Of a DNA stretch of 64,000 nt, positions 2,382-39,362 are shown in pieces. Position 1 is the stretch's first letter, and the number at the start of each line of letters is the position of its first letter. Position numbers and translations under genes: made by a program. This DNA comes from Escherichia phage CJY920, in sequence record PQ349265.1. One strand, given 5' to 3'. Under the pieces are notes generated by a model that did not search any database, was not told the DNA's origin, and saw only the letters and a program-made list of their open reading frames with translations.

Positions 2382-3161
2382 ATGAATTATACTAAAGTAT
2401 ATAATAATTTAATTAAGAAAGGAAAACTCAGAAAATTAGATAAATCTAAATTAAATTTTTATACGGAAAAGCATCATATTATTCCATCTTGTATTGGTGG
2501 TAATGATGATTCTGATAATTTAGTTTTATTAACAGCTAGAGAGCATTTTATAGCCCATTGGCTTTTAGCTAAAATTCATTATAATTCGCCTGGATTAATT
2601 TATGCATGGTGGTCATTTTATAATTTTGGAGAAGATTCTTTAGGAAGAAATCTCAAATTAACTTCAAGAGGATATCAGTTAGTTAGAGAAAAATTTTCAA
2701 AAATACATTCTAATACAATGAAAGAAATGTGGAAGTCTAATGAATACAGAGAAAAACGTTCGATAACATTAAGTCTTCCTGAAATAAGGGCTAAAATTTC
2801 AGAATCCCAGTTAGAAGCACAAAACAAACCGGAAGTTAAAGAAAAAATATCTAAAGGGGTGAAAGCTGCTTTTAAACGACCGGGAGTTAAAGAAAAACAC
2901 TCTGCTGCAGTCAAAAAATCTTTGAATAATTTTGAAACTAAAAAGAAACAATCAAATTCATCTAAAATTAGACAAAGAACTGGTAAACATTGGCAAGACT
3001 ATGACTTACTTTATAAGTTATGGATTAAATTAAATAGACCTAAACGTGGGTCATTCGGAACTTATATAAGTAAATTAGGATATCCAAAATCTAATTATCA
3101 TCGATTGATTGTACAATTTAATGAAGATTATGAAAGGTCTAATAATGAAAACTGTAGTTAA
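2382..3161 (+). CDS. Mob-type HNH homing endonuclease (MobD-like by position)
   Basis: N-terminal MNYxKxYNxLI and HHIIP..GG...N.V.LT..EH..H HNH motif; C-terminal DNA-binding tail shared with other Mob/Seg ORFs here. Confidence 0.8.
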   Translation: MNYTKVYNNLIKKGKLRKLDKSKLNFYTEKHHIIPSCIGGNDDSDNLVLLTAREHFIAHWLLAKIHYNSPGLIYAWWSFYNFGEDSLGRNLKLTSRGYQLVREKFSKIHSNTMKEMWKSNEYREKRSITLSLPEIRAKISESQLEAQNKPEVKEKISKGVKAAFKRPGVKEKHSAAVKKSLNNFETKKKQSNSSKIRQRTGKHWQDYDLLYKLWIKLNRPKRGSFGTYISKLGYPKSNYHRLIVQFNEDYERSNNENCS

Positions 3162-5930: not shown

Positions 5931-6197
5931 ATGACTAGAACTAAACTGGTGAATGGAGGTAGTGATGTTATACTCAAAGACGGTTATAGATTTAGTGAAT
6001 ATATTTCCCCAGAGATGTATTCTTCAATAGAAAAAGGTGATAATATTACTGTAAGTTTACGTCCTTTCGACGTAAAACAGACACTGTTTGATAATATTGT
6101 TTGGTTCTTTGGGATGGTATTAGTTCAATCTGTGTGCGGTGCTTATGTAGTCTGTTCAATCATATTCTGTGTATTTAGTAAAATTGAAATTGAGTGA
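5931..6197 (+). CDS. hypothetical protein with C-terminal hydrophobic segment (88 aa)
   Basis: track ORF only; weak. Confidence 0.35.
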   Translation: MTRTKLVNGGSDVILKDGYRFSEYISPEMYSSIEKGDNITVSLRPFDVKQTLFDNIVWFFGMVLVQSVCGAYVVCSIIFCVFSKIEIE

Positions 6198-8189: not shown

Positions 8190-9116
8190 ATGACTCGTAA
8201 ACATTATATTGATTATTTTAACAGTCTTATTACTAAACATCGTAATTATCAGATAGGACACAGAGCAGTAATCAATAATATTCTTCGTGATTTCCTTCAA
8301 TATGTTGGCCAGGAAAATCATATATGTAAAGATACACAGAACGCTTATTCTCATTCGTTAGGCAATTTGCTTCAATGGTTTAAACGTTCTCGTCTGTTAT
8401 CTTCTACTGTAGCTAGTGATAACATTAAAAACTTTATGAAGCCGAGCTTCATTAAATCTGCGACATCTATAACCGATTTGGTTGAATTTACCATTGTTAA
8501 CGATGTTAAAAAGACCCATTTGGCTGATTGGTTATCTACCATTCCTGAAACTAAATTTGCCGATAAATTCGCTTGTCAATTCAATGACCAAGTGAATATG
8601 CTTTTTAAGCATGCTCGTAAACTATTTACCGCGGGTGATGACCGTACAAATACAGTTCATGTTAAGGACTGGGTTATTGCTGATGAAGTAACACACAAGC
8701 CAGGCGGTTCATCAGTATTAATTAATATCCAGGTTCCTTATTATTACTCACGTAATCTCGGCACCATGACAGCTAGAGAAATTAATAAGCATAACAAAAC
8801 TATTCGTTCGTTGTCTTATAAACTCTGCACGATGGTGGAGATGATGGACGTAGTGGAAATGTATGATGAAACCGAAGATAATGGTTCAATGTTATACAGT
8901 TCACGTATTCTAATTAAACTGAAGAATCCTAATACATATAAGCCAGTTGTAAAAGAACCTAAAATAGAAAAAGTTGATAACTTGAGCGAAGAACGTGAAT
9001 ATCTCAATGCTCGTTTGATTGAAGTTGAAGCCCAGATTGCCGAACACACCAAATTGTTAAAAGCTCTTAATGCAAAAGCAAATGGTTTACGTAATGCTAT
9101 TGAGGTATTGAAATGA
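8190..9116 (+). CDS. hypothetical protein with C-terminal coiled coil (308 aa)
   Basis: ATG after GAGGAG SD downstream of promoter. Confidence 0.6.
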   Translation: MTRKHYIDYFNSLITKHRNYQIGHRAVINNILRDFLQYVGQENHICKDTQNAYSHSLGNLLQWFKRSRLLSSTVASDNIKNFMKPSFIKSATSITDLVEFTIVNDVKKTHLADWLSTIPETKFADKFACQFNDQVNMLFKHARKLFTAGDDRTNTVHVKDWVIADEVTHKPGGSSVLINIQVPYYYSRNLGTMTAREINKHNKTIRSLSYKLCTMVEMMDVVEMYDETEDNGSMLYSSRILIKLKNPNTYKPVVKEPKIEKVDNLSEEREYLNARLIEVEAQIAEHTKLLKALNAKANGLRNAIEVLK

Positions 9117-9430
9117 AAAAGCGTCTATTAGAAGATATTGCAGCTTCAAGTAATTCCAGTCTAATTAAAATTATTATGGCTGGTGAAGAAGACGATCTGG
9201 AAATGCGTGGAAAGATTCATGGTTGCGATGATTTAGACTTTAAACCTCCAGCTTGGGATGCCATTATGGTTATGGTTGAACGTCGTGAAAGGGCTTCTAA
9301 AAACGTTCCTAATTGTCCTGAATGCGGTACTGAACAGGTACAATTAGTTCATTGGCAGACTAGTATTCTTCGTTATAAATGTCGTCATTGCAAACACCGA
9401 TTTAACCGAGAAGAAAATGACAAAGCGTAA
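9113..9430 (+). CDS. zinc-ribbon protein (CPECG...CRHCKH)
   Basis: four Cys in CxxC-x(n)-CxxC arrangement; ATGA overlap. Confidence 0.55.
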
Positions 9431-9659
9431 AGAATATATGGAGATTGCTGAAAAAGCAGTCCGTGAATTAGCAATAGCGTATTATAATGAACATGGTAAA
9501 TTTCCTGATAGATACAGCGTGCTTAAATCTGCTTTAAATCGTTCATATAAAAATATGCTATCAGAAGTAAGTGATATTATATACAAGCATAAAGAACAAA
9601 CTGGCCAAAGTCTTGATTACGACGAGACTTTTAAACAAGTACTAGGAATTAAGGAATAA
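9417..9659 (+). CDS. hypothetical protein (80 aa)
   Basis: track ORF. Confidence 0.5.
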
Positions 9660-9660
9660 T

Positions 9661-9924
9661 ATGTTTAAAGTATATGGTTATGATAGCAACATCCACAAAT
9701 GCGTGTATTGCGATAATGCAAAACGTCTTTTGACTGTGAAGAAACAGCCGTTTGAATTTATCAATATTATGCCGGAAAAAGGTGCTTTTGATGATGAGAA
9801 AATCGCTGAGCTTCTGACGAAACTAGGTCGTGATACTCAAATTGGTTTGACAATGCCGCAAGTATTTGCTCCTGACGGAAGTCATATTGGTGGATTTGAC
9901 CAATTGCGGGAATACTTTAAATGA
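9661..9924 (+). CDS. nrdC: NrdC thioredoxin/glutaredoxin
   Basis: 87 aa MFKVYGYDSNIHKCVYCDNAK...; CxxC redox motif; matches remembered T4 NrdC. Confidence 0.9.
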   Translation: MFKVYGYDSNIHKCVYCDNAKRLLTVKKQPFEFINIMPEKGAFDDEKIAELLTKLGRDTQIGLTMPQVFAPDGSHIGGFDQLREYFK

Positions 9925-10136
9925 TGCTCGAAGGAACTGATTATATCCATGACTACCGCGGAAGCGCGGTATATGTAGGTGATGAGGTTGCAGTTTATTA
10001 CGGGTATGGAACTTTGATGACAGCAAAGGTTATTCAAATTAAAAATGGCCGTGCTAAACTCGAAGTTTATTATTCTAATGGTGAAAAGTCTATTTCTAAA
10101 TGGAAATACGGCGATTGCATGGTCAAATTGGGGTAA
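9921..10136 (+). CDS. hypothetical protein (71 aa)
   Basis: ATGA overlap with nrdC stop. Confidence 0.5.
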   Translation: MMLEGTDYIHDYRGSAVYVGDEVAVYYGYGTLMTAKVIQIKNGRAKLEVYYSNGEKSISKWKYGDCMVKLG

Positions 10137-10138
10137 AT

Positions 10139-10447
10139 ATGATTTATGATGTTGATGCAGTTCTGAGTGAAATCATCGAAGACCATGATGCATTTTCAGA
10201 AAATTATGATTTCGATTTTTCGGATTATCTTAAACCTGTCGAAATAGAAGATTGGGTACAAGATGGCAAATGCCAATATCGGCAGTGCGTTTATTTTAGT
10301 CCAAAACATAATGTACATGTTTCCGTAAATGAATCTCGCTCAGGTTCTTACCATTCTGACTGGTATTATGCAGTTCCGACTGTTGAACTAGTCGAGCCCC
10401 GTGAACGTGTAATAACTCAGACAATACGAGAATGGATTACGCTATAA
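10139..10447 (+). CDS. hypothetical protein (102 aa)
   Basis: ATG just after upstream stop. Confidence 0.5.
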   Translation: MIYDVDAVLSEIIEDHDAFSENYDFDFSDYLKPVEIEDWVQDGKCQYRQCVYFSPKHNVHVSVNESRSGSYHSDWYYAVPTVELVEPRERVITQTIREWITL

Positions 10448-10570
10448 AACCCTGGTGGGCGGCTAGATGGGAAACTGTAGAGCCAGAGCCGGAAGAACCG
10501 GTTTACACTGATGAAGAAACAGTATATAATGAACCTACAATAAATGACTTAATTGATATGGAGATGGGAC

Positions 10571-11017
10571 ATGATTACAGTAGATAAGTGGTTTAGAATT
10601 AATCGTGCTGATATAGGGCTGTGTAATTACTGGCCGGAACTTAGTGCAGATACTGTCTTTAAAGTTCGTGAACTTGTAAAAGAATGTGAAGATGATATAG
10701 AACCTGATATTGGAATTATTGAAATTGAACTTTCTGATGGAAAGATTATTAACATTTACGATAAGCCAATTACATATTGGTGCTTGTGGAATACTGAATC
10801 AGTAGAAAATGGCGAAATTGAAGAAGTTGTAGAACGAGTTGATCAAGCTATTCATAAACCTAAAGCCGCTTTTCAAGGTGAACGCATTTCATATGCATTA
10901 GCTAAATTAGCTGCGCAAGAAAACAACGATGGCTATGAAGGAAATTTAATGCAAGCTGCGGCAGAATATATTGAATGGCTTGAAACTCAAATTTCTTTTT
11001 CTGACCGAGCGTTTTAA
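10571..11017 (+). CDS. hypothetical protein (148 aa; syntenic with T4 pin/49.x region)
   Basis: ATG preceded by GGAG; track ORF trimmed. Confidence 0.5.
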   Translation: MITVDKWFRINRADIGLCNYWPELSADTVFKVRELVKECEDDIEPDIGIIEIELSDGKIINIYDKPITYWCLWNTESVENGEIEEVVERVDQAIHKPKAAFQGERISYALAKLAAQENNDGYEGNLMQAAAEYIEWLETQISFSDRAF

Positions 11018-11066
11018 TACTTGAAAATAATAAATACCCTTATCTATTTAAGGTAAGGGTTTTATT

Positions 11067-11540
11067 ATGTTATTGACTGGCAAATTATATAAAGAAGAAA
11101 AACAGAAATTTTATGATGCACAAAACGGTAAATGCTTAATTTGCCAACGAGAACTAAATCCTGATGTTCAAGCTAATCACCTTGACCATGACCATGAATT
11201 AAATGGACCGAAAGCTGGAAAGGTACGTGGGTTGCTCTGTAATCTATGTAATGCTGCAGAAGGTCAAATGAAACACAAATTTAATCGTTCTGGCTTAAAG
11301 GGACAAGGCGTTGATTATCTTGAATGGTTAGAAAATTTACTTACTTATTTAAAATCAGATTACACCCAAAATAATATTCACCCTAACTTTGTTGGAGATA
11401 AATCAAAGGAATTTTCTCGTTTAGGAAAAGAGGAAATGATGGCTGAGATGCTTCAAAGAGGATTTGAATATAATGAATCTGACACTAAAACACAATTAAT
11501 AGCTTCATTTAAGAAGCAGCTTAGAAAGAGTTTAAAATGA
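11067..11540 (+). CDS. 49: endonuclease VII (Holliday junction resolvase)
   Basis: 157 aa, HLDHDHELNGPKAGKVRGLLCNLCN zinc/HNH-like core; matches remembered T4 gp49. Confidence 0.9.
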   Translation: MLLTGKLYKEEKQKFYDAQNGKCLICQRELNPDVQANHLDHDHELNGPKAGKVRGLLCNLCNAAEGQMKHKFNRSGLKGQGVDYLEWLENLLTYLKSDYTQNNIHPNFVGDKSKEFSRLGKEEMMAEMLQRGFEYNESDTKTQLIASFKKQLRKSLK

Positions 11541-11869
11541 CAATTGAAAAAGAAATTGAAGGATTAACTATAACTGGAGGTGACCCTCTTTATCCTGATA
11601 ACCGAGATGTTGTTCATTGCATTGTTCAAACAGTAAAAAATCTTTATCCGAATAAAAGCATTTGGTTGTGGACAGGATATAAGTTTGAAGATATTAAACA
11701 ACTAGAAATGCTTAAATATGTTGATGTTATTATTGATGGGAAGTATGAGAAAAATCTTCCGACCAAAAAGCTGTGGCGAGGTTCAGATAATCAGCGACTT
11801 TGGTCAAATACCGATGGGGTGTGGAAACATGATTTTTCATTTTGGTCCAGAATTTTATTCGCAGTATAG
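11537..11869 (+). pseudogene. nrdG: truncated nrdG (anaerobic RNR activase) remnant lacking radical-SAM N-terminus
   Basis: LTITGGDPLYP...IWLWTGYKFED...IDGKYE...LWRGSDNQ aligns to NrdG C-terminal two-thirds; no CxxxCxxC part; ATGA overlap with gene 49. Confidence 0.55.
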
Positions 11870-11911
11870 TTTAGTGCTTATCAATGCTTGGTTAATCAAT
11901 TAAGGGTAAAT

Positions 11912-12127
11912 ATGTATAAATTTCGTAAAGGTTTAGCTGATTTTCTTACAACCGTAACATTCTTTTTGTTTATGGCAGTTGGAGCTATTTTCCTTATTCC
12001 TTTTATTGCTATATTTTTCGTGATTAGCTTAATTTCTCCAGAAAAAGGCTTATCTTCTAGCGAGTTTAATGAGCGTCTGGATAAAATTACTAACAAACTG
12101 AATGCTGTTCTTGATAAAAAGGCTTAA
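11912..12127 (+). CDS. small membrane protein (71 aa)
   Basis: ATG after AAGGG; long hydrophobic segment. Confidence 0.5.
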   Translation: MYKFRKGLADFLTTVTFFLFMAVGAIFLIPFIAIFFVISLISPEKGLSSSEFNERLDKITNKLNAVLDKKA

Positions 12128-12129
12128 TT

Positions 12130-12441
12130 ATGATTAGTTTTGAGCGGTACGTGGTAGAGAGTTGGAAGGGTTTTGATATGTTCGGTAATGACTATTATTT
12201 CTATGAATGTAGTCTAAATCCTAGTTTTTGGGCTGGACGAGAACGAGAACTTGAAGAAATTAATAACCGTGCTGAATTGTTAGGTGAATTACCTACGGTT
12301 TATTTTACCTTTGATGCATCTGGATTTGTTATCCAGGTTTATTTTCCTGAAGAAAATTCTGGCGATGATTCTGTTAACCCGCCATACTGGGCTTATCAAG
12401 GAATTATTTCTCGTGGAACAAAACTCGAACTTAAAGAATAA
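12130..12441 (+). CDS. hypothetical protein (103 aa)
   Basis: track ORF. Confidence 0.55.
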   Translation: MISFERYVVESWKGFDMFGNDYYFYECSLNPSFWAGRERELEEINNRAELLGELPTVYFTFDASGFVIQVYFPEENSGDDSVNPPYWAYQGIISRGTKLELKE

Positions 12442-12736
12442 GATTGAAGTCTATGGAATTCCAGATGAAGTAGGTCGTTGTCCTGGATGTCAATCAGTTA
12501 CAAAACTTCTAAAGGAGCTCAATGCTCCTTTTACTTTCTATAAAGTTCTTACAAATAATGGTAAGATTGAGTATGATCGCCCACTGATTGTATCTCTTGC
12601 TAAACGAGCTGGATTCACATCTCTTAACATTCGTTATCCAGTCATTTTCATCAATGATTCTAGACAAAAGAACATTAAACACTTCAAAGAAACTCTCATT
12701 TCACTTGGATATGATAGAGATATCATAGAAGACTAA
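12365..12736 (+). CDS. glutaredoxin/NrdH-like redoxin (start uncertain)
   Basis: KIEVYGIPDEVGRCPGCQ thioredoxin-fold N-terminus with CxxC; domain begins right after stop of upstream ORF with no ATG at the domain start. Confidence 0.45.
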   Translation: MILLTRHTGLIKELFLVEQNSNLKNKIEVYGIPDEVGRCPGCQSVTKLLKELNAPFTFYKVLTNNGKIEYDRPLIVSLAKRAGFTSLNIRYPVIFINDSRQKNIKHFKETLISLGYDRDIIED

Positions 12737-12739
12737 GAC

Positions 12740-12762
12740 GGGCCCTCTGGGCCTTTCTTTTT
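12740..12762 (+). terminator. intrinsic terminator hairpin plus T-run
   Basis: ggccc-tct-gggcc followed by tttcttttt. Confidence 0.55.
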
Positions 12763-12834
12763 CACATTCTGTATATTACCATTCTAAGCTATCGTTCCCT
12801 TCTTATCATTCCCTAAAATAATTTTCACAAAGTT

Positions 12835-12864
12835 GTTTACAAGAAGTTCAAACTGTGGTATTAT
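12835..12864 (+). promoter_or_regulatory. early sigma70-type promoter
   Basis: GTTTAC -35, TGTGGTATTAT extended -10. Confidence 0.55.
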
Positions 12865-12894
12865 TAACATATGAATTGCCTTTGAGGATTTGAT

Positions 12895-13070
12895 ATGGTT
12901 GATAAAGAGATTAAAAGGGATCAGTATTATCGAGTTAACGGACATATTGTTATTGTTACAGCAGTAGATGATCTAGATGTTCATTATACTGTGCTTAAAT
13001 GGAACAAACACATGATTTGTGACCGTGCTGTATTTAGTTCAGTTGCTAAGGAAATTAAACTCCATGGGTA
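12895..13070 (+). CDS. hypothetical protein (58 aa)
   Basis: first ORF after promoter; below track threshold. Confidence 0.4.
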
Positions 13071-13357
13071 AAACGTATCGTCGTAAAGATTTAAAAGTAC
13101 GTGATTATGACTATTTCGGAAAGCGTAAAGCTCCTGATGGTGTAAGTCATAAAGATATGGTTGAAAACATTTTTCGCTCAGATAAATGGCGTAGAATGAA
13201 AGGCATTGATTCAGAAGTTAAAGATGAGCTAAACCGTCAATTGCGTAGTGAAGTAAGAAAGTTGAAAAAATCAGTTTACATTGACGATGATTTTGATTAC
13301 AATACTTCTCAACGAGTTGCTAAGCGTAAATCAAACGAGTGCTATCGTTACAGCTGA
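13064..13357 (+). CDS. hypothetical basic protein (97 aa)
   Basis: ATG overlapping upstream stop; Lys/Arg-rich. Confidence 0.5.
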   Translation: MGKTYRRKDLKVRDYDYFGKRKAPDGVSHKDMVENIFRSDKWRRMKGIDSEVKDELNRQLRSEVRKLKKSVYIDDDFDYNTSQRVAKRKSNECYRYS

Positions 13358-13364
13358 GGAAAAT

Positions 13365-13565
13365 ATGAATCCTGAATCTAAATTATCGCAACGAATTGCT
13401 GAAGCTCGTCGTCAGTTCTTTGAAAATATGATAGCCCAGGGTATTGATGACGAAGTCTTTCTGAACTGGTTTTGGAATCACAAATATTCAAAATGCGCAG
13501 GAGCAATATTAATATCAGCTGCAATGATGTACGAAGGCTGGAAGGGTGCCAAACAGTTTAGCTAA
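13365..13565 (+). CDS. hypothetical protein (66 aa)
   Basis: ATG after GAGGAAAAT; track ORF trimmed. Confidence 0.45.
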   Translation: MNPESKLSQRIAEARRQFFENMIAQGIDDEVFLNWFWNHKYSKCAGAILISAAMMYEGWKGAKQFS

Positions 13566-13583
13566 GGGCTTCGGCCCTTTTTT
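13564..13583 (+). terminator. intrinsic terminator (UUCG hairpin plus T-run)
   Basis: agggc-ttcg-gccct followed by ttttt. Confidence 0.65.
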
Positions 13584-13618
13584 GGATAATAAAATTTTAA
13601 TGCAATTGAGGATAATGT

Positions 13619-13945
13619 ATGACTATTCAAATTAAAAACGCCATCAATTCTTACGCATATGATAAAGTAGTTTCTCTGCTAGAAAAAGGCGATATTGTAA
13701 CTCCTCAAATTTTGGATAAATGGGAAAAAGAGCTTCATCAGACGATGAAACAGAATGATCAGAAAATTGGACGCAATACTATCCGTGAATTGTTGGTTCA
13801 GTATATCTTGTCAGAATTTGATGTTAAAGCTTTTGGCGTAGAATCTAAAGCTTATCAAAAGCATGAAATTTCTGATAAAACTATTCGTCGTATGAAAAAT
13901 CAACGCAAGAAAAAATTTGCTGACCTGAAAATTACTAAGGTATGA
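13619..13945 (+). CDS. hypothetical protein (108 aa)
   Basis: track ORF with SD. Confidence 0.55.
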   Translation: MTIQIKNAINSYAYDKVVSLLEKGDIVTPQILDKWEKELHQTMKQNDQKIGRNTIRELLVQYILSEFDVKAFGVESKAYQKHEISDKTIRRMKNQRKKKFADLKITKV

Positions 13946-14163
13946 ATATGAACGAAGCTCTTATTAATGATTTACGTCTTGCCGGATATGAAGTAAATAC
14001 AAACGGCAGTGGTTTAACTCAAATTGAAGGAAATGGATTTATTCTTGAGTATGAATTTAGCCAATGGTGGTTATATGCTAATTACGGCGAATTGATTGAA
14101 TACGTTGACCAATTTGATTCACTAGATGCAGCTCTTGAAACGGCTAAGTTGATGAATGCATGA
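13942..14163 (+). CDS. hypothetical protein (73 aa)
   Basis: ATGA overlap. Confidence 0.5.
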   Translation: MNMNEALINDLRLAGYEVNTNGSGLTQIEGNGFILEYEFSQWWLYANYGELIEYVDQFDSLDAALETAKLMNA

Positions 14164-14429
14164 AATTTATTAATATTTCTATTACTATTGAAAATTATGG
14201 AATTTTCTATGTTGACCAATATATGAAAATTTCATTTTTCCCAAATAAGACTGGTGTTGGATATTGGGAAAGCCATGTTTCTGAATTAAATGAAAGTGAA
14301 TATGTTAGCACACATGAAAAGTTTTTAGACTTTTTATATCATGCTGATTTAACTAGTCATTACATAGATATTCATGAATTTAAAAAGATGATGGAGAAAG
14401 TGTTCCAAGCATACTGTTTACTTAGATAA
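14160..14429 (+). CDS. hypothetical protein (89 aa)
   Basis: ATGA overlap. Confidence 0.5.
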   Translation: MKFINISITIENYGIFYVDQYMKISFFPNKTGVGYWESHVSELNESEYVSTHEKFLDFLYHADLTSHYIDIHEFKKMMEKVFQAYCLLR

Positions 14430-14507
14430 CTGATATCCTCTATGCTTTAAGATAGATCTTCAAATATTATGATATAATAGATCTATGAATTGAGCTAAGA
14501 GGTGAAA

Positions 14508-15065
14508 ATGTCAGAAACTAAGCCTAAATATAATTACGTAAACAATAAAGAGCTTTTACAAGCTATTATTGATTGGAAAACAGAATTAGCAAATAATAAA
14601 GACCCAAATAAAGTAGTTCGTCAGAATGATACTATCGGATTAGCCATTATGCTTATTGCAGAAGGCTTATCTAAACGTTTCAACTTTTCAGGATACACCC
14701 AATCCTGGAAACAAGAAATGATTGCAGATGGTATAGAAGCTTCTATTAAGGGGCTTCATAATTTTGATGAAACGAAATATAAAAACCCACATGCATATAT
14801 AACTCAAGCTTGTTTTAATGCATTCGTCCAACGTATTAAAAAAGAACGTAAGGAAGTTGCAAAGAAATATAGTTACTTCGTTCACAATGTCTATGACAGT
14901 CGTGACGACGATATGGTTGCGTTAGTAGATGAAACTTTTATTCAAGACATCTACGATAAAATGACGCATTACGAAGAATCAACCTATAGAACACCAGGGG
15001 CTGAAAAGAAAAGTGTTGTAGACGATTCTCCTAGTTTGGATTTTTTATATGAGGCTAACGATTAA
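14508..15065 (+). CDS. 55: late-transcription sigma factor gp55
   Basis: 185 aa [23 protein letters not shown]...; matches remembered T4 gp55; GAGGTG SD. Confidence 0.9.
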
Positions 15066-15267
15066 CCTCTCCGGATTCTTGGAAGAAATACCTGAAGTTG
15101 AAGCTATTCCCTATTTACTTAAAATGTATCTCAGGGAAGTTTTAGCTCTTGACATTGATATTGATCCAGAAAATCCGTATGATACCGCTTTTAAATCTAA
15201 TGGTGTAGAATTAAACTATCGGTATCATTTAACAGATGATGATTTTTATTTTATATTAGAGAAATAA
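15049..15267 (+). CDS. hypothetical protein (72 aa)
   Basis: track ORF overlapping end of gene 55. Confidence 0.4.
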
Positions 15268-15268
15268 T

Positions 15269-15586
15269 ATGACTGATAAACCCGAAATTAATGATGAAGT
15301 GGAAAAGCTTATTTCTTCTATTGAAGAAAAGAACCGTCTTGAAGCAGAAAGAAAAGCAAATAAGTTATTGTCTAAAAATAAGCGCGAACTGAACCGTCTT
15401 TATAAACACGCTCAGATTGCAGCTGAAAACAATAATTTTGCTCAATACGAATATGCTATCAAGAAAAGTCGGGATATTCTAAAACAGCCATATAACGATG
15501 AACTCATTAGTATTCTTTGGAAGACTACTAGATCGCAGATTGAGGATATGATTGATGCTTACACACGTAAAATTCAAGCGTCTTAA
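15269..15586 (+). CDS. hypothetical protein (105 aa)
   Basis: track ORF. Confidence 0.5.
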   Translation: MTDKPEINDEVEKLISSIEEKNRLEAERKANKLLSKNKRELNRLYKHAQIAAENNNFAQYEYAIKKSRDILKQPYNDELISILWKTTRSQIEDMIDAYTRKIQAS

Positions 15587-15758
15587 AATTAATGCAGGAT
15601 TTACTGAATCTTTGAATGGTCATCTTTGTGTGAAAATTTCTGAAAAAGAATACCATGATACTTCAATTAAAGAAGTTAATCCTCCTATTGTAAGAGCAGA
15701 CCCTAATATGAAAGTGTGGGTTGATTCTTATCAAGTCAAAAAATGGTGGCAACTGTGA
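15552..15758 (+). CDS. hypothetical protein (68 aa)
   Basis: track ORF. Confidence 0.4.
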   Translation: MMLTHVKFKRLKINAGFTESLNGHLCVKISEKEYHDTSIKEVNPPIVRADPNMKVWVDSYQVKKWWQL

Positions 15759-15761
15759 AAG

Positions 15762-15935
15762 ATGAACATCCAGACTTCTGAAATAGATTATAATAAAATT
15801 CGTTCCTCTAAAGAGGAAATGATGAGACGTTTTAAAGAGTCTTATGATAAAGCTAAAGCCGAAGGAACTATTACGTACAAGCCCATTCGATTTAAAAGTT
15901 CAAATGAGCCTCTGTATGACGTATTATGCGGATAG
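15762..15935 (+). CDS. hypothetical protein (57 aa)
   Basis: short ORF below track threshold. Confidence 0.35.
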   Translation: MNIQTSEIDYNKIRSSKEEMMRRFKESYDKAKAEGTITYKPIRFKSSNEPLYDVLCG

Positions 15936-15950
15936 GAGCTTCGGCTCCTA

Positions 15951-15977
15951 TATTGCTTTATAAATTTTTGGTAAAAT
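15951..15977 (+). promoter_or_regulatory. candidate MotA-dependent middle promoter
   Basis: TGCTTTA MotA-box-like, about 11 nt, TAAAAT; preceded by UUCG hairpin at about 15935-15948. Confidence 0.4.
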
Positions 15978-16001
15978 AAACCAAAACAAAGAGGATATTA
16001 A

Positions 16002-16796
16002 ATGAATTATTTAAACATATATAATTCACTGATCGAAAAAGGACTAAACAGATGCAATGATAAAAGTCTTTTGACATACTATACTGAAACCCATCATATA
16101 ATTCCTAAATGCATGGGTGGTACAGATGATAAAACTAATTTAGTTCTTTTGACGCCAGAAGAACATTTTACCGCGCATTTATTGTTATTTAAAATTTATA
16201 GACTTCCTAAATTGGCTTTAGCTATTCGTATGATGTGTTATAGTTCTGACGGAACAAGACTAAATAATAAAATGTATGGATGGATTAAAACAGCTGTATC
16301 TTCCTCAATATCGGAAAGCATGAAAGAGTTCTGGAAAGATGATAATAATAAAAAATATATGTCTAACGCTAGACGAAATACTGGAAAACCAATTTATCAA
16401 TATGATTTAAATGGAAATTTTATTCGCAAATATAGATGTATTACAGACGCTGCAGAAGATATGTCATATAGATGTTCAAGTTCAATTAAACAGTGCGTAG
16501 ATGGGAAAAGGAAAACCGCTGGAGGATTTCAATGGAAATATTATTATTTTGATAACATAGGAAAGCCCTCTACGATGTCTAACACAACTAGACAAAAAAT
16601 GTCTAAGTCTAAACGTGGGATAACTCAGAAAAGAAATGTGCCAGTATTTCAATATGATACTGCTGGAAAATTATTACGAGTATTTCCTAAAATTAAAGAC
16701 GCAGCTGAATCCGTTAAAGGATGCATGTCTAATATTAAAAAGTGTATATCCGGAAAAAGTAAAATTGCTTATGGATACGTTTGGGCTTATTCGTAA
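16002..16796 (+). CDS. Mob-type HNH homing endonuclease (MobB-like by position)
   Basis: MNYLNIYNSLIEKG..., HHIIPKCMGG...NLVLLTPEEHFTAH; two C-terminal NUMOD1-like repeats. Confidence 0.8.
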   Translation: MNYLNIYNSLIEKGLNRCNDKSLLTYYTETHHIIPKCMGGTDDKTNLVLLTPEEHFTAHLLLFKIYRLPKLALAIRMMCYSSDGTRLNNKMYGWIKTAVSSSISESMKEFWKDDNNKKYMSNARRNTGKPIYQYDLNGNFIRKYRCITDAAEDMSYRCSSSIKQCVDGKRKTAGGFQWKYYYFDNIGKPSTMSNTTRQKMSKSKRGITQKRNVPVFQYDTAGKLLRVFPKIKDAAESVKGCMSNIKKCISGKSKIAYGYVWAYS

Positions 16797-16855
16797 TGCT
16801 TTTATAGTAAATAAAATGTTATTTACATAACTTATTAAATGGAAAGAGGAACTAT

Positions 16856-18058
16856 ATGCGTATTTGCATTTTTATGGCTCGAGGTCTTGAAGGTTGTGGT
16901 GTAACTAAATTTTCTCTTGAGCAACGTGATTGGTTTATTAAAAATGGTCATGAAGTGACTTTGGTTTATGCTAAAGATAAATCATTTACCCGTAATTGCG
17001 CGCATGATTATAAATCATTTTCAATTCCAGTTTTATTGGCAAAAGAATACGATAAAACACTTAAGCTGGTAAATGATTGTGATATTCTAATTATCAATTC
17101 AGTTCCTGCTTCTTCAGTCGAAGAAGACACTATTAATAACTATAAAAAAATTATTGATAACATTAAACCTTCGGTTCGTGTTGTAGTTTATCAGCATGAC
17201 CATTCTTCTCTTTCTTTGCGCCGAAATTTGGGATTAGAAGAAACTGTTCGTCGAGCTGATGTTATTTTTAGCCATTCTGATAATGGTGATTTTAATAAAG
17301 TTCTGATGAAAGAATGGTATCCAGAAACTGTTTCTCTGTTTGATGATATTGAAGAAGCACCGACAGTATATAACTTTCAGCCTCCTATGGATATTGCGAA
17401 GGTTCGGTCAACCTACTGGAAAGATGTTTCTGAAATTAATATGAATGTCAACCGTTGGATTGGTCGTACGACTACATGGAAAGGTTTTTATCAGATGTTT
17501 GATTTTCACGAAAAACATCTTAAACCTGCTGGGCTAAGTACTATTATGGAAGGTCTGGAACGTTCTCCAGCGTTCATTCCTATTAAAGAAAAAGGAATTC
17601 CATACGAGTATTATCGTCTTCACCAAGTAGACCAAATTAAAATTGCTCCTAATTTGCCGACGCAAATTCTCGACCGTTATGTAAATAGCGAAATGCTTGA
17701 ACGCATGAGTAAATCCGGATTTGGTTATCAGCTGAGTAAGTTGGACAAAAAATATCTACAACGTTCTTTAGAATATACTCATCTTGAATTAGGTGCTTGC
17801 GGTACAATTCCTGTTTTCTGGAAATCTACTGGCGAAAATTTAAAATTCCGTGTTGATAATACTCCTTTGACCTCACATGATAGCGGTATCATTTGGTTTG
17901 ATGAAAATGACATGGAATCAACATTTGAACGTATTAAAGAATTGTCATCTGACCGAGCTCTTTATGACCGTGAGCGAGAAAAAGCATATGAATTTTTGTA
18001 TCAGCATCAAGATTCAAGCTTCTGCTTTAAAGAACAGTTTGACATTATTACAAAATAA
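16856..18058 (+). CDS. a-gt: DNA alpha-glucosyltransferase
   Basis: 400 aa MRICIFMARGLEGCGVTKFSLEQRDWFIKNGHEV...; matches remembered T4 alpha-gt. Confidence 0.9.
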   Translation: MRICIFMARGLEGCGVTKFSLEQRDWFIKNGHEVTLVYAKDKSFTRNCAHDYKSFSIPVLLAKEYDKTLKLVNDCDILIINSVPASSVEEDTINNYKKIIDNIKPSVRVVVYQHDHSSLSLRRNLGLEETVRRADVIFSHSDNGDFNKVLMKEWYPETVSLFDDIEEAPTVYNFQPPMDIAKVRSTYWKDVSEINMNVNRWIGRTTTWKGFYQMFDFHEKHLKPAGLSTIMEGLERSPAFIPIKEKGIPYEYYRLHQVDQIKIAPNLPTQILDRYVNSEMLERMSKSGFGYQLSKLDKKYLQRSLEYTHLELGACGTIPVFWKSTGENLKFRVDNTPLTSHDSGIIWFDENDMESTFERIKELSSDRALYDREREKAYEFLYQHQDSSFCFKEQFDIITK

Positions 18059-19701: not shown

Positions 19702-21380
19702 AGAATTTTAAACTTAATAGAGTAAAATATAAAAATATAATGTCAGTTGGTCAAAATGGAGTTGACATTCAATTAGATAAGGTTCAAAAAACTCTTATTA
19801 CTGGACGAAATGGCGGTGGTAAGTCTACTATGTTAGAAGCCATCACATTTGGGCTTTTTGGCAAGCCATTCCGTGATGTAAAGAAAGGTCAATTAATAAA
19901 CAGCACAAATAAGAAAGAACTTTTAGTTGAACTGTGGATGGAATATGATGAGAAAAAGTACTATATCAAAAGAGGACAAAAACCAAACGTTTTCGAAATC
20001 ACCGTTAACGGTACACGTCTTAATGAATCTGCCAGCAGTAAAGATTTCCAAGCAGAATTTGAACAGCTTATCGGAATGTCATATGCCAGTTTCAAGCAGA
20101 TTGTTGTCCTTGGTACAGCAGGGTATACCCCTTTCATGGGTTTGTCGACCCCTGCGCGAAGAAAGCTTGTGGAAGACCTGCTTGAGGTAGGAACATTAGC
20201 TGAAATGGATAAGCTTAATAAAGCACTAATACGTGAATTAAATTCACAAAACCAAGTGCTTGATGTTAAAAAAGATAGTATTATCCAACAAATTAAAATA
20301 TATAATGATAACGTTGAACGCCAGAAAAAATTAACTGGTGATAACCTTACTCGTCTGCAGAATATGTATGATGATTTGGCAAAAGAAGCTAGAACGCTAA
20401 AATCGGAAATAGAAGAAGCTAATGAAAGATTAGTTAATATTGTTTTGGATGAAGACCCGACTGATGCATTTAATAAAATCGGTCAAGAAGCATTTTTAAT
20501 TAAATCAAAAATTGACTCGTATAATAAAGTCATTAATATGTATCACGAAGGTGGATTATGTCCAACCTGTTTGTCACAATTAAGTTCCGGTGATAAAGTT
20601 GTTTCTAAAATTAAAGATAAAGTTTCTGAATGTACGCATTCATTTGAACAGCTTTCAACGCATCGTGATAATTTAAAAGTTCTTGTTGACGAATACCGAG
20701 ACAATATTAAAACCCAGCAGACGTTGGCAAATGATATTCGCAATAAAAAGCAATCTCTAATCACGACGGTAGATAAAGCTAAAAAGGTTAAAGCGGCTAT
20801 AGAAAAAGCATCATCCGAGTTTATTGACCATGCTGATGAAATAGCACTGCTTCAAGAAGAACTTGATAAAATTGTTAAAACAAAAACTAATTTAGTAATG
20901 GAAAAATACCACCGAGGAATTTTGACTGATATGCTCAAAGATTCTGGTATTAAAGGTGCTATTATTAAAAAGTACATTCCATTATTTAATAAGCAGATTA
21001 ACCATTATCTTAAAATAATGGAAGCGGATTATGTGTTTACATTAGATGAAGAATTTAATGAGACAATTAAATCCCGTGGTCGTGAAGATTTTAGTTATGC
21101 TTCATTTAGTGAAGGCGAAAAAGCACGAATTGATATTGCTCTTTTATTTACTTGGCGTGATATTGCTTCTATTGTATCTGGTGTTAGTATTAGTACATTA
21201 ATACTCGATGAAGTGTTTGATGGGTCATTTGATGCCGAAGGTATTAAAGGTGTAGCTAATATTATAAATTCAATGAAAAACACTAATGTTTTTATAATTT
21301 CGCATAAAGACCATGACCCGCAAGAATATGGTCAGCATCTTCAAATGAAGAAAGTTGGTCGGTTTACTGTAATGGTTTAA
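19698..21380 (+). CDS. 46: recombination ATPase subunit gp46 (Rad50/SbcC-like)
   Basis: 560 aa; Walker A GRNGGGKST, zinc hook CPTC, C-terminal LILDEVFD; GTG start. Confidence 0.9.
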   Translation: MKNFKLNRVKYKNIMSVGQNGVDIQLDKVQKTLITGRNGGGKSTMLEAITFGLFGKPFRDVKKGQLINSTNKKELLVELWMEYDEKKYYIKRGQKPNVFEITVNGTRLNESASSKDFQAEFEQLIGMSYASFKQIVVLGTAGYTPFMGLSTPARRKLVEDLLEVGTLAEMDKLNKALIRELNSQNQVLDVKKDSIIQQIKIYNDNVERQKKLTGDNLTRLQNMYDDLAKEARTLKSEIEEANERLVNIVLDEDPTDAFNKIGQEAFLIKSKIDSYNKVINMYHEGGLCPTCLSQLSSGDKVVSKIKDKVSECTHSFEQLSTHRDNLKVLVDEYRDNIKTQQTLANDIRNKKQSLITTVDKAKKVKAAIEKASSEFIDHADEIALLQEELDKIVKTKTNLVMEKYHRGILTDMLKDSGIKGAIIKKYIPLFNKQINHYLKIMEADYVFTLDEEFNETIKSRGREDFSYASFSEGEKARIDIALLFTWRDIASIVSGVSISTLILDEVFDGSFDAEGIKGVANIINSMKNTNVFIISHKDHDPQEYGQHLQMKKVGRFTVMV

Positions 21381-21633: not shown

Positions 21634-22023
21634 ATGACTAAAATTACTGTGAATTATACTGTTGATGTAAAAGATATTCAGCCAAAACACGTGCGTTCTG
21701 ATTCAAATCCACAAAACCAAAATAAAATTCGTCGAGCATGGGTTTTGTCTCTTTCTGATAACGCAATGGAAGTTATTCAGAACAAAATTAAATCTGCACC
21801 TGCTCGTCATGCGTATTATGAAGCTATCGATCGTGAAGTAAGTAATAAATGGATTGAACTAATGCGCAAACATACTACAGAATCCCTAAACGCCGGTGCT
21901 AAATTTATTATGACTTCATGTGGTGAACGCCTTGAAGATGATTATTGCGGTAATGCAGATGAACGTCTAATTGTTGCTGCTCAAATTGTTGCGGAAACAA
22001 TTGCTGCTGAGTTTAATAAATGA
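21634..22023 (+). CDS. rpbA: RNA polymerase-binding protein RpbA-like
   Basis: 129 aa, position immediately upstream of gene 45 region. Confidence 0.6.
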
Positions 22024-22907
22024 ATTTAGTATATCTTATTAGCTTTCCAGAGCGGGAAGCTAAAAATATTTTTCCGTGTTATTATATAGGTTCGAAAATT
22101 GACGCAATTTTCGATGGAACAAATATAATTGATTCAGCTGGAAAGATTTATACTGGAAGCGTGTCATCGAGTTATAGCGATGAATATTTTGAGCTTATTA
22201 AAACCACTAAATATACTGTTAAAATTTTAGCTGAAACTATATTAGATCCAAGAAAATTGGAAAGATTTTTTCAATTAAAAGTTAAAGCAAAAAGTAATAT
22301 AAAATATTTTAATAAAGCGTACGCAGATGAAAATACTTTAATTGGTGCTAAAGGATATGGAACATATAAAAATGTTTTAACTGGAAAAATTGTAAAGCTT
22401 TCGCAATCTGAAATCACGCCCGATTATGTTGGTATTCGTAAAGGTTACAAACATAGTTCTGACGTAAAATACAAAATATCTAATTCAATGAAGATTCACT
22501 GGACCGATGAGAAAAAGCTTAAACTCTCAAATAAGATGAAATTGAAATATCTTGATTGTAGTTATGCTAAAAAGTTTAGTGATATAATGAACTCAGAAAG
22601 TGTAAGATCAAAAATTTCTAAATCTCAAAAAGAATTATGGAATAATGCTGAAAGAAGACAGAGAGCTTCAATTCAAGCAACTGTTAGAAATAATTTACCG
22701 GAATTCAAATCAAAATTTAGAAAATCTAAAGCTAGAGGAACTTGGATTGAACATGAAGATGAATTAAAATCTTTATGGCATGCTTACGGAAAACCGAGTT
22801 ATAATAAATTTCGTAAAATTGCAGTAGCTAATGGGTTTAACGACGAATCTTATCAGGGTGCTGTACGGTCCTGGTCTAACTATTATGTAAATAGGAAATT
22901 GAAATGA
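22020..22907 (+). CDS. Seg-type GIY-YIG homing endonuclease
   Basis: N-terminal VYLISF...YYIGSK...YTGS GIY-YIG-like; repeated [35 protein letters not shown]-like motifs; ATGA overlaps on both sides. Confidence 0.65.
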
Positions 22908-30277: not shown

Positions 30278-31116
30278 TTCAATTCGTAATTCCAAGCTAT
30301 CAACGAGTAGGGGCAGTTTCTGCCCTTGATATGTTTCCGACTGATTATGAACCTCATATTGTAGTACGTGAACACGAAGAAAAAGCTTATTATGACGCTT
30401 ATGGGTCTAAAGCTAAAATTATAACTATTTCTGATGATGTCAATGGAATTGCTGGAACTCGTAAAGCAATTACTGATATGTATGCAGGTCAACGAATTTG
30501 GATGATCGATGATGATACTACTATTCGTATGAGTTCAATACGAAAGAGAGACGATAAACGGCGCGTAGATAAAGTCAATCAATTGACTCGTGAGCAATTC
30601 TATGAATTAATTCAATACGTTGAGGATGCCATGGATTGCGGGTATTATCATGGCCATGCTCGTCTACCAATTTTTAAAATTACTTCATCTTGGGGTAATT
30701 ATCGTGAAAATTCATATGGATTCACGAATACATGGTATGACCTTGGAAAACTTACGACAGAACAAATTGGGTATGGAAAAATTGATTTATGCGAAGATAT
30801 GTATGCATTTCTCAATTTAATTAATCAAGGTTATCCGCATTTGGCCTTGTTCAAATATCTAGTTGTATCTGGAAAATCACACGCTCCCGGTGGATGTAGT
30901 TCAATTCGTAGTAATTCTAAACATAATAGAGCGCTTGAGCAAATCAATAGAGAGTTTCCAGAGCAAGCTCGTTGGAAAACATCGAATATTGAAAAACGAA
31001 AATCGTTGGGTGAAGAAGATGAACCACTAAAGGTTCTTCGCATGTGTGTTTCGCGTAAAGAAAAATCAGAAGCATTTCATAAGTTTAATGCTATTCATCC
31101 AATAGCAGTTGATTAA
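30274..31116 (+). CDS. glycosyltransferase (GT-A-like, DxD), candidate DNA glucosyltransferase, not T4-type beta-gt
   Basis: 280 aa, WMIDDD DxD-like motif; occupies beta-gt locus between 42 and segA/uvsX but does not resemble T4 beta-gt (351 aa). Confidence 0.55.
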   Translation: MIQFVIPSYQRVGAVSALDMFPTDYEPHIVVREHEEKAYYDAYGSKAKIITISDDVNGIAGTRKAITDMYAGQRIWMIDDDTTIRMSSIRKRDDKRRVDKVNQLTREQFYELIQYVEDAMDCGYYHGHARLPIFKITSSWGNYRENSYGFTNTWYDLGKLTTEQIGYGKIDLCEDMYAFLNLINQGYPHLALFKYLVVSGKSHAPGGCSSIRSNSKHNRALEQINREFPEQARWKTSNIEKRKSLGEEDEPLKVLRMCVSRKEKSEAFHKFNAIHPIAVD

Positions 31117-31120
31117 TGAC

Positions 31121-31786
31121 ATGAAAAGACACAAAGAAAAGAAATATAATTATACTTATGTTATAACTAATTTAGTTAATAATAAAATTTACTACGGAAC
31201 TCATTCAACCGATGACTTAAATGATGGTTATCTGGGGTCAGGAACTTTATTAGCACAAGCCAAGAAAAAGTATGGTAAGAAAAATTTTAATTTAAGCATT
31301 CTTGGGTTTTATAAAGATTTTAAATCAGCCCGTGATGCTGAAAGAGAATTAGTAACAATAGATGTGGTAAATGATCCTATGACCTATAATTTAAAAATTG
31401 GCGGAGAGGGTGGTAGAAGAATTGGTTATAGAGTTTCATCAGAAACCAAAGAAAAAATTTCAAAAGCTCAAAAAGGAAAACCAAAACATCTTGGATTTAG
31501 TGATGTTTGCCGGAAAGCCCAGCTAGGCAAAAAGCAGTCAGAAGAAACTAAAGCAAAACGAAAAGAAGCTTTGCTTAATAATCCATATGGTTATAATAGA
31601 AATAAACCATCACATAAACGTGACCCAATAATGTGGGATAACATTGAAAAGATTAAAGAAATATGGGAAAACTCTGGAAAACCCGGTGCTATTAAGCTTA
31701 AAAAATTAGCAATTGAAGCTGGATTTCCAAATAAATCTTATGCAAGAATGCTCGAAGTATTTCGTGGAACAAGAACACTACTATAA
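31121..31786 (+). CDS. segA: Seg-type GIY-YIG homing endonuclease (SegA-like by position)
   Basis: 221 aa; YTYVITNLVNNKIYYGTHS GIY-YIG motif; NUMOD-like ETKEKISKAQKGKPK; located just upstream of uvsX. Confidence 0.7.
   Translation: MKRHKEKKYNYTYVITNLVNNKIYYGTHSTDDLNDGYLGSGTLLAQAKKKYGKKNFNLSILGFYKDFKSARDAERELVTIDVVNDPMTYNLKIGGEGGRRIGYRVSSETKEKISKAQKGKPKHLGFSDVCRKAQLGKKQSEETKAKRKEALLNNPYGYNRNKPSHKRDPIMWDNIEKIKEIWENSGKPGAIKLKKLAIEAGFPNKSYARMLEVFRGTRTLL

Positions 31787-38022: not shown

Positions 38023-39362
<1,340 letters not shown>

Follow-up and report, generated by a model that had tools for sequence, protein, structure and literature searches.

The nrdD-nrdG locus of the T4-like Escherichia phage CJY920: a probable short-repeat deletion and the in-frame fusion that it left

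In the T4-type phages the nrdD-nrdG operon lies in the slot between gene 49 and 55.8/nrdH, with the nrdD start codon in an ATGA overlap. Homing endonucleases occupy the same locus in several phages: the I-TevII intron and mobC in T4, and seg-like genes in phages Lv5cm and Pu-Krd-SF1. T4 repairs double-strand breaks through UvsX-dependent pairing of minihomologies of 3–13 nt, and the deletions that result, in non-essential DNA, range in size from 17 bp to 18 kb (Wu et al. 2021, PMC8262927). Both the classical "illegitimate" deletions of T4 and its CRISPR-escape deletions belong to this kind. In an engineered T4 clone, T4_583L (MZ375356), nrdD is mostly missing and nrdG has lost its 5' part; the clone was deposited as a complete genome and is presumed to be viable.

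The window analyzed here is a stretch of 64 kb (64,000 nucleotides) of the ~168 kb genome of Escherichia phage CJY920 (PQ349265.1); comparison with its relatives identifies it as part of a Tequatrovirus (T4-like) genome. Its nrdD-nrdG locus occupies the T4-type slot, keeps the nrdD start with its ATGA overlap, and retains a 3' part of nrdG that is 99–100% identical to intact alleles. Unlike the T4-type operon it has lost 595 of the 605 nrdD codons, the first 64 codons of nrdG, which include the CX3CX2C motif, and the nrdG stop codon, so that the operon is predicted from sequence to be non-functional. In common with the T4 minihomology deletions there is one copy of a 4–10-nt repeat at each junction, the sizes, 39 bp to 2 kb, are covered by the reported range and the region is presumably non-essential; the differences are that CJY920 is apparently a natural isolate, has no known nuclease trigger and carries three events within 6 kb. 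Unlike the endonuclease-occupied loci this one contains neither an endonuclease gene nor an intron, the sites having been removed rather than invaded. Clone T4_583L was considered as a record of the same deletion and rejected, since it is engineered and its endpoints differ: it has a T4 backbone, a 95-aa NrdD stub and a separate 108-aa NrdG stub, and its genome, 151.8 kb long, carries many other designed deletions.

The gene 49 region and the 1,985-bp deletion

The features of the region are as follows.

9661..9924, + strand: nrdC (T4 thioredoxin/glutaredoxin), retained (Pfam Glutaredoxin, 4e-07; synteny with relatives)
11067..11540, + strand: gene 49, recombination endonuclease VII, intact (Pfam PF02945 Endonuclease_7, 5e-22; PF09124 Endonuc-dimeris, 1.5e-33)
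11537..11869, + strand: nrdD'-'nrdG in-frame fusion pseudogene of 110 codons (alignment to intact nrdD and nrdG)
11558..11567, + strand: junction of deletion 1, where GAAGGATTAA, a 10-bp direct repeat, survives as one copy (three-way alignment)
11912..12127, + strand: gene for a 55.8-like small membrane protein, intact and 3' of the deletion (almost identical to T4 gp55.8 of MZ375356)
12413..12736, + strand: nrdH-like glutaredoxin gene with a GTG start, retained (Pfam Glutaredoxin, 5e-05; matches a protein annotated as T4 NrdH)
14502–15065: gene 55

Gp49 is 100% identical to its counterpart in several Tequatrovirus phages, and the TGA stop of its gene overlaps the ATG start of the following ORF (11537–11869) as ATGA. 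The ORF listing contains nothing longer than 110 aa between gene 49 and nrdH and no large ORF between genes 49 and 55, and an Rfam scan of positions 9000–16000 revealed no intron or ribozyme remnants. This is in agreement with the first-pass annotation, which had found no ORF of nrdD size and no intron between genes 49 and 55, and had proposed a deletion of nrdD together with the 5' part of nrdG.

Such a deletion is what the alignment reveals. Against five relatives possessing an intact 49-nrdD-nrdG arrangement (REP4, W143, G2133, Lv5cm and Pu-Krd-SF1) CJY920 lacks 1,985 bp just after gene 49, in a clean gap. The segment removed comprises codons 11–605 of nrdD and codons 1–64 of nrdG, and no ORF of ~605 aa with a catalytic barrel and a glycyl-radical domain is present. 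REP4 carries two copies of GAAGGATTAA, at positions 1559 and 3544 of the compared stretch, that is, 1,985 bp apart, and the same net gap was found against W143 and G2133. The repeat encodes EGL in both genes (nrdD codons 8–10, nrdG codons 65–67); because the two copies share a codon phase, joining them gives an in-frame ORF. In nrdD-nrdG there are just six exact direct repeats of 10 bp or more, and among these the GAAGGATTAA pair is the most widely spaced. The junction was absent from 749 matching phage records, from IMG/VR, from GTDB genomes and from JGI metagenomes and is therefore not a known lineage variant.

A search by tblastn for a second nrdD or nrdG found none in the 64-kb window; the best NrdD match (E = 0.19) was to the stub itself (codons 1–10). 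The gene is essentially single-copy, with 2,943 places in 2,926 nrdD-containing phage records, and it follows gene 49 in the six relatives examined. NrdD of at least 90% identity occurs in 691 phage records, which approximates the number of Tequatrovirus records (683–749). Since NrdD and NrdG are thus near-universal in this genus, CJY920 represents a rare natural knockout. Such a phage might be used to ask how much its own anaerobic reductase adds to the anaerobic growth of a gut phage, a question of relevance to the choice of phages for intestinal therapy. Our search for the phenotype of T4 nrdD mutants found no open-access paper. Phage BME3 was considered as another case lacking nrdD and was rejected, as it has NrdDG.

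The fusion ORF

The reading frame that follows gene 49 consists of residues 1–10 of NrdD, residues 68–156 of NrdG and 11 read-through codons. Around the junction repeat its parts are:

11537..11557, + strand: retained 5' end of nrdD, start codon and codons 2–7 (REP4 nrdD begins with the same 21 nt)
11568..11833, + strand: nrdG 3' remnant, codons 68–156 (over residues 64–156, 99% amino acid identity to REP4 NrdG and 100% to Lv5cm NrdG)
11834..11869, + strand: read-through tail of 11 codons (FSFWSRILFAV) and a new TAG stop, from former intergenic DNA

The first-pass annotation had described this ORF as the C-terminal part of a truncated nrdG. Its relatedness to NrdG stands, for residues 7–99 match residues 64–156 of REP4 NrdG at 92 of 93 positions (99%). 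Its 5' end does not fit that description: the ATGA-overlapped start and the first ten codons (MTIEKEIEGL) are those of nrdD, so that the ORF is an nrdD'-'nrdG fusion and not merely a truncated nrdG. This nrdD 5' end, the 10-bp repeat at the junction, a second deletion and the loss of the nrdG stop codon were additional to what had been noted at first pass.

The absence of an N-terminal CxxxCxxC motif, which had also been pointed out, follows from the loss of NrdG residues 1–64. The fusion has a single cysteine; the 4Fe-4S-ligating CX3CX2C is missing, and with it the three cysteines that correspond to C26, C30 and C33 of REP4, in a part of NrdG that corresponds, on alignment to PFL-activase, to the cluster-binding region of the latter. 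The GGD(E) motif for SAM binding is kept (TITGGDPLYP). Of the Pfam Fer4_12 profile only positions 50–136 were matched, and PF04055 (Radical_SAM) gave no match. Against TIGR02491 (NrdG) the fusion scored 111.2 bits, below the curated cutoff of 126.1, over positions 62–153 of 154, whereas intact REP4 NrdG scored 199.2 bits. Judged as a full-length NrdG the protein thus has the homology, including GGD/E, and lacks the cysteine motif, a score above the cutoff and an adjacent nrdD. Because it has no ligands for the iron-sulfur cluster and no NrdD partner, we consider it a dead remnant, with presumed loss of the function of the operon as a whole. No record of the exact 110-aa protein was returned by an exact-protein look-up.

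We also considered whether a family of functional mini-NrdG proteins might exist, and rejected it. The 41 database homologues found among 5.8 billion proteins are 149–171 aa in length and possess a Radical_SAM domain, with the exception of two partial sequences of 107 and 123 aa, both on contigs of ~1 kb or less.

Deletions 2 and 3

Two more deletions are private to this phage.

11829..11834, + strand: junction of deletion 2 (39 bp), with ATGATT, a 6-bp repeat, present once (the 39 bp are there in all five relatives)
5972..5979, + strand: junction of deletion 3 (1,121 bp) in the nrdC.x region (microhomology ACTCAAAG versus ACTTAAAG, 4 nt exact)

Deletion 2 took the TAA stop codon of nrdG and 36 bp of intergenic DNA. 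A 28-mer spanning its junction occurs in no phage record and, among the matches listed (683 records), a 60-bp query was split over 99 bp; neither this junction nor that of deletion 1 occurs in 50,697 phage records. Inspection of the deleted 39 bp and its flanks for promoters of the sigma-70 type and for terminators indicated nothing convincing that had been lost. The segment does contain TATAAATG, which is near the late-promoter consensus and is listed as a candidate only.

The microhomology at deletion 3 is AAAG within ACT[C/T]AAAG (4–8 nt), and an empty insertion site for a homing endonuclease is found ~100 bp upstream of the junction. None of 502 phage records contained a contiguous match to this junction, and megablast gave no match. 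All three deletions therefore share the pattern of two repeats in the parent and one copy at the junction (GAAGGATTAA, 10 nt; ATGATT, 6 nt; AAAG, 4–8 nt). They lie at 5.9–11.9 kb of the window; comparison with three relatives disclosed no further private deletions at 25–58 kb.

Origin of the deletions

We consider it very probable that a recent deletion between short repeats removed most of a REP4-type nrdD-nrdG and left a dead fusion. The ancestor would have had gene 49, nrdD and nrdG in the plain arrangement of REP4, free of introns and of flanking endonuclease genes, and recombination or annealing between the two copies of GAAGGATTAA would have dropped the 1,985 bp. The resulting fusion would be translated from the nrdD start, coupled to gene 49, and the 39-bp repeat-mediated deletion would have stripped it of its stop codon. 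The phage would itself encode no class III (anaerobic) ribonucleotide reductase and, in the absence of oxygen, would depend upon host NrdDG and upon nucleotides from degraded host DNA. That the nrdG remnant is 99–100% identical to intact alleles, with no decay, suggests that the event was recent, and the phage presumably tolerated the deletion because it can do without nrdD and nrdG. Short-homology repair as in T4, possibly started by a double-strand break, is the likely route. The window includes uvsX, a 391-aa ORF (31795–32970) identified by synteny with the recombinase of the relatives. The mechanism is already well known in T4, and its outcome here is a new natural knockout allele, whose clean junctions offer a natural example beside the experimentally described minihomology repair.

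A refinement that keeps the deletion and concerns only its trigger is that the deletions are repair scars of attack by homing endonucleases, which we entertain as a tentative possibility. The endonuclease of a co-infecting relative would cut the empty allele, and the break would be rejoined at a minihomology instead of being homed into; with its target sites lost the phage would be immune. Illegitimate repair at microhomologies after endonuclease cleavage is documented in T4 (PMC2988022). In Lv5cm and Pu-Krd-SF1 the interval from gene 49 to nrdD holds a seg-like gene and that from nrdD to nrdG a seg-like gene of the GIY-YIG type, and Lv5cm has in addition an I-TevII intron in nrdD; the 1,985-bp deletion spans all three sites. 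In these two genomes nrdD is strongly diverged over its first ~240 nt, as would be expected for immunity or co-conversion tracts, so that presence/absence polymorphism of endonucleases is accompanied by diverged flanks at this locus. Codons 35–38 of nrdG, also in keeping with such tracts, are recoded (NKST to NRST) in Pu-Krd-SF1, the genome in which they were read, Lv5cm not having been read in register there. Another empty site, occupied in Lv5cm and W143 by a gene for a 239-aa GIY-YIG-like protein (motif read by eye), is ~100 bp from the start of deletion 3. The restriction of the three private deletions to 5.9–11.9 kb, with none at 25–58 kb, also fits. Against this, a third empty endonuclease site (~19707–19719) carries no scar, deletions at short repeats also arise spontaneously with no known break, and the association comes from two loci in a comparison of three to five relatives. 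That all three deletions are such scars, with cleavage rejoined rather than converted and with cargo genes (here the anaerobic reductase operon as a whole) lost along with the target sites, we regard as unlikely; if it were true, homing endonucleases would directly drive gene loss and immunity by deletion in T4-like phages. The position of the deletions beside empty endonuclease sites is in any case a testable lead on gene loss caused by endonucleases.

Alternatively the deletions might have been selected as compensation for genome size under headful packaging, restoring terminal redundancy, as in the compensatory deletions that are classical in T4 (Homyk and Weil, discussed in PMC8262927). 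Extra mobile genes amount to several kb in this genome. The window contains inserts with endonuclease domains at 16002–16796, 31109–31786 and 54558–55370, a weaker candidate at 53242–54060, an insert with no Pfam match at 22020–22907, and a dam methylase. With the deletions included it is still 2.3 kb longer than W143 over positions 1–57933 and 3.2 kb longer than REP4 over 10500–59440. Many Tequatrovirus genomes of 169–171 kb nevertheless keep nrdDG, and 39 bp are too few to matter. We consider size compensation a distinctly unlikely cause. Selection to shed DNA, in a genome limited in size and rich in endonucleases, may have acted in addition to endonuclease scarring.

Quite doubtful is an origin as an artefact or a laboratory product, be it an assembly error, a minority variant plaque-purified from aerobic culture, or an engineered or CRISPR-escape deletion. 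The junction is unique in all collections searched, the fusion protein is not on record, the remnant is undecayed, and engineered and CRISPR-escape deletions in T4 look alike. Three separate, clean, repeat-flanked deletions are nevertheless improbable as assembly errors, and a repeat of 10 bp is far shorter than the k-mers used by assemblers, which again speaks against such an error. The backbone, moreover, is not T4 itself but a natural mosaic that shares ~97% identity with wild isolates. A variant confined to a sub-population, or laboratory propagation, could also account for the deletion.

That the fusion is a functional new protein, or that nrdD and nrdG have been relocated elsewhere in the genome, is hardly credible: the ORF is in frame with the nrdD translation start kept and the nrdG part intact, but the in-frame join is automatic from repeats in the same phase, all cluster ligands are absent, no other genome has this architecture, and nrdD is essentially single-copy among the phage records, with no second copy in the 64 kb. 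In annotation the ORF should be called a fusion remnant or a pseudogene rather than "NrdG."

The ORF behind gene 49

The window is a segment of a Tequatrovirus (T4-like) genome given in the direction of the early genes, for which ORF lists and the annotations of relatives give the order tk/rI-side genes, nrdC, pin, 49, 55, alpha-gt, 47/46, 45/44/62, 43, uvsX, 41, 61, dda, 39, rIIA/rIIB and 52. It is not T4 itself but a natural mosaic, with ~96–98% identity to many wild isolates including REP4, EP01, W143, Lv5cm and Pu-Krd-SF1. Two overlapping ORFs are of concern here:

11067–11540, gene 49 (endonuclease VII), identified by Pfam
11537–11869, nrdD'-'nrdG fusion ORF, ATGA overlap with gene 49

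The first-pass annotation had described the second of these as a truncated nrdG fused behind gene 49, and the observation is real. The C-terminal NrdG portion was confirmed, residues 7–99 being identical to residues 64–156 of REP4 NrdG at 92 of 93 positions and to the Lv5cm allele throughout, but the start and first 10 codons are those of nrdD. The predicted protein consists of NrdD 1–10 (MTIEKEIEGL) joined in frame to NrdG 68–156, and the ORF is an in-frame fusion remnant which retains the nrdD start codon and the coupling to gene 49.

Matches to the family models are confined to their C-terminal part: Pfam matched Fer4_12 (positions 50–136) and gave no Radical_SAM match, while TIGR02491 matched at positions 62–153 only, with 111.2 bits against a cutoff of 126.1 (intact REP4 NrdG, 199.2). 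The CxxxCxxC motif is, as had been noted, missing: the ORF has one cysteine, and it is the absent N-terminus that aligns with the part of pyruvate formate-lyase activase which binds the cluster. Since the nrdG remnant shows no decay, having no frameshifts, stops or private amino-acid changes, the deletion is taken to be evolutionarily very recent. The ORF list holds no large ORF between genes 49 and 55, and no RNA families, and hence no intron remnant, were detected in 9000–16000, which agrees with the earlier statement that neither an nrdD-sized ORF nor an intron lies there. Nor does the 64-kb window contain any further NrdD match.

Deletion junctions

BLAST against the REP4 locus (L001) breaks the region into colinear blocks, the endpoints of which were taken from a base-level three-way alignment. 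The window tracks REP4 across gene 49 as far as nrdD nt 31, then resumes at nrdG nt 193. The switch point lies inside GAAGGATTAA, which REP4 carries in two copies 1,985 bp apart (L001 1559 and 3544) and the window in a single copy (11558–11567). The net gap is likewise 1,985 bp against W143 and G2133, whose layout is again plain 49-nrdD-nrdG. Alignment to intact operons upholds the view that a deletion took nrdD together with the 5' portion of nrdG, and that the ORF is NrdG-related at its 3' part. Both repeat copies share a codon phase (GAA GGA TTA, E-G-L, with Ile as the preceding residue in each gene), so that the junction is in frame. The operon contains just six exact direct repeats that are 10 bp or longer, and this pair is the one spanning nearly the whole of it.

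Approximately 260 bp downstream a further 39 bp, present in all five relatives with an intact operon, are missing from the window. They are flanked by two ATGATT hexamers, of which a single copy is left at 11829–11834. The nrdG TAA stop was lost with them, and the ORF therefore reads through 11 codons (FSFWSRILFAV) into former intergenic DNA before ending at a TAG.

Comparison of window 1–25 kb with four relatives and 13–59 kb with three revealed a third deletion, of 1,121 bp at 5972–5979 (ACTCAAAG/ACTTAAAG; 4–8 nt microhomology), seen in no relative compared. None of 502 matching phage records matches contiguously across this junction, and the deletion is robustly private. The lost segment (relative's locus L005, 7052–8166) takes in a 175-aa ORF, together with the greater part of a 104-aa nrdC.8-like gene and the 5' portion of a gene for a 135-aa membrane protein. 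The three private deletions all fall within 5.9–11.9 kb; none was found at 25–58 kb against three relatives. At 8193–8200 the window lacks a 1,057-bp segment which W143, G2133 and Pu-Krd-SF1 possess, the junction showing an 8-nt overlap; this loss is shared with Lv5cm and so is not private, and resembles the outcome of recombination between nrdC.x paralogues of ~39 kDa lying in tandem.

At each junction a short direct repeat survives in one copy, in presumably non-essential early-region DNA, an anatomy which is characteristic of the "illegitimate" or minihomology deletions of T4. T4 rejoins double-strand breaks via UvsX-dependent pairing of 3–13-nt minihomologies, which yields deletions ranging from 17 bp to 18 kb, and older T4 39–56 deletions have the same structure (Wu et al., PMC8262927). 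We therefore conclude that a short-homology recombination event removed nrdD along with the 5' portion of nrdG. Deletion with loss of function is very probable, and the original interpretation is supported with these refinements.

Homing endonuclease sites and inserts

Both large deletions adjoin sites that are empty in the window and occupied by homing-endonuclease genes in relatives. In Lv5cm and Pu-Krd-SF1 a seg-like gene separates 49 from nrdD, a seg-like gene of the GIY-YIG type separates nrdD from nrdG, and Lv5cm nrdD also has an I-TevII intron; all three sites are empty in the window. Similarly, ~100 bp upstream of the 1,121-bp deletion, Lv5cm and W143 have a 239-aa GIY-YIG-like gene (motif by eye) where the window has none. 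In Lv5cm (L003 14194–14430) and Pu-Krd-SF1 (L004 14109–14350) nrdD is strongly diverged over its first ~240 nt, with ~35% nucleotide differences and several amino-acid changes, beyond which both abruptly become near-identical to endonuclease-free alleles. In Pu-Krd-SF1 nrdG, codons 35–38 (L004 ~16848–16860), just after the CX3CX2C motif, show six substitutions in 9 nt (AATAAATCAACA to AATCGTAGTACT), changing NKST to NRST, which is presumably also what T4 NrdG has at this place. The patch may confer target-site immunity. Both tracts look like products of immunity or co-conversion, which would place the likely endonuclease targets inside the interval deleted in the window. The large deletions might thus be scars of endonuclease cuts that were closed by joining at minihomologies and not by homing; Edgell et al. 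(PMC2988022) summarise illegitimate repair at microhomologies where intron endonucleases have cut. Against this, a third empty site (~19.7 kb) bears no scar and the sample is small, and we consider this origin possible but rather unlikely.

Inserts in the window absent from REP4, W143 and G2133
2382–3161, homing-endonuclease-like
16002–16796, endonuclease domain
22020–22907, no Pfam match
31109–31786, endonuclease domain
38583–39362, Dam-type N6-adenine methyltransferase, in a 1.4-kb insert
53242–54060, weaker endonuclease candidate
54558–55370, endonuclease domain

The six inserts other than that with the methylase are homing-endonuclease-like, and the domain types among them are HNH + NUMOD1 (mobB-like), GIY-YIG + NUMOD3 (segA-like), NUMOD3 and weak HNH; two, at the mobD and rpbA/45 positions, have no Pfam match. 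The window is 2–3 kb longer than W143 and REP4 across the shared stretch. With these inserts and this surplus, headful packaging could favour the shedding of dispensable DNA, an idea complementary to that of endonuclease scars.

Rarity, consequence and neighbouring features

None of the 749 phage records matching a 341-bp probe matches contiguously across the 1,985-bp junction, its 25-mer was not found in IMG/VR, GTDB genomes or JGI metagenome contigs, and the exact fusion protein has no match on record. No 28-mer spanning the 39-bp junction occurs in the phage collection; among 683 matching records, all matches listed divide a 60-bp probe so that it extends over 99 bp. A total of 691 phage records contain NrdD with an identity of 90% or more, as against 683–749 Tequatrovirus records by neighbouring probes, so the operon is nearly universal in the genus. 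The sole other truncation met, in the engineered genome-reduced T4 clone MZ375356, has different endpoints. That the deletion is an assembly artefact or a minority variant, or arose in the laboratory, is improbable; misassembly is disfavoured by three clean, repeat-flanked junctions in a backbone which is a natural mosaic. That the ORF is a functional new mini-protein, or that the operon has moved elsewhere, is very unlikely: the window has no second NrdD match, and 41 NrdG homologues from a 5.8-billion-protein database are 149–171 aa with a radical-SAM domain, save two partials (107 and 123 aa) on contigs of ~1 kb or less.

We regard the deletion as a natural knockout allele, new and apparently unique, of an operon that is well understood, probably produced by a well-understood mechanism. 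By itself this is of modest interest, the link to empty homing endonuclease sites being the only part possibly beyond routine. The phage would lack its own class III reductase, and anaerobic growth should rely on host NrdDG and salvage of host DNA. It retains nrdC and an nrdH-like glutaredoxin; the aerobic nrdA/nrdB lie outside the window.

The nrdH-like gene requires a GTG start at 12413, overlapping by 29 nt a 103-aa ORF (12130–12441) between 55.8 and nrdH. This ORF, without Pfam or NCBIfam matches, occurs in REP4, W143, Lv5cm and Pu-Krd-SF1, and not in T4 or G2133. An AdfA anti-DarT factor gene (35898–36524) is shared with G2133 and REP4, not W143. Directly upstream of gene 49 is a stem-loop with a T-run (11036–11060), which we take to match the hairpin that regulates how T4 gene 49 is translated. 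Behind nrdH comes a GC-rich terminator-like hairpin (12740–12754), and 12836–12864 is a strong match to an early-type promoter.
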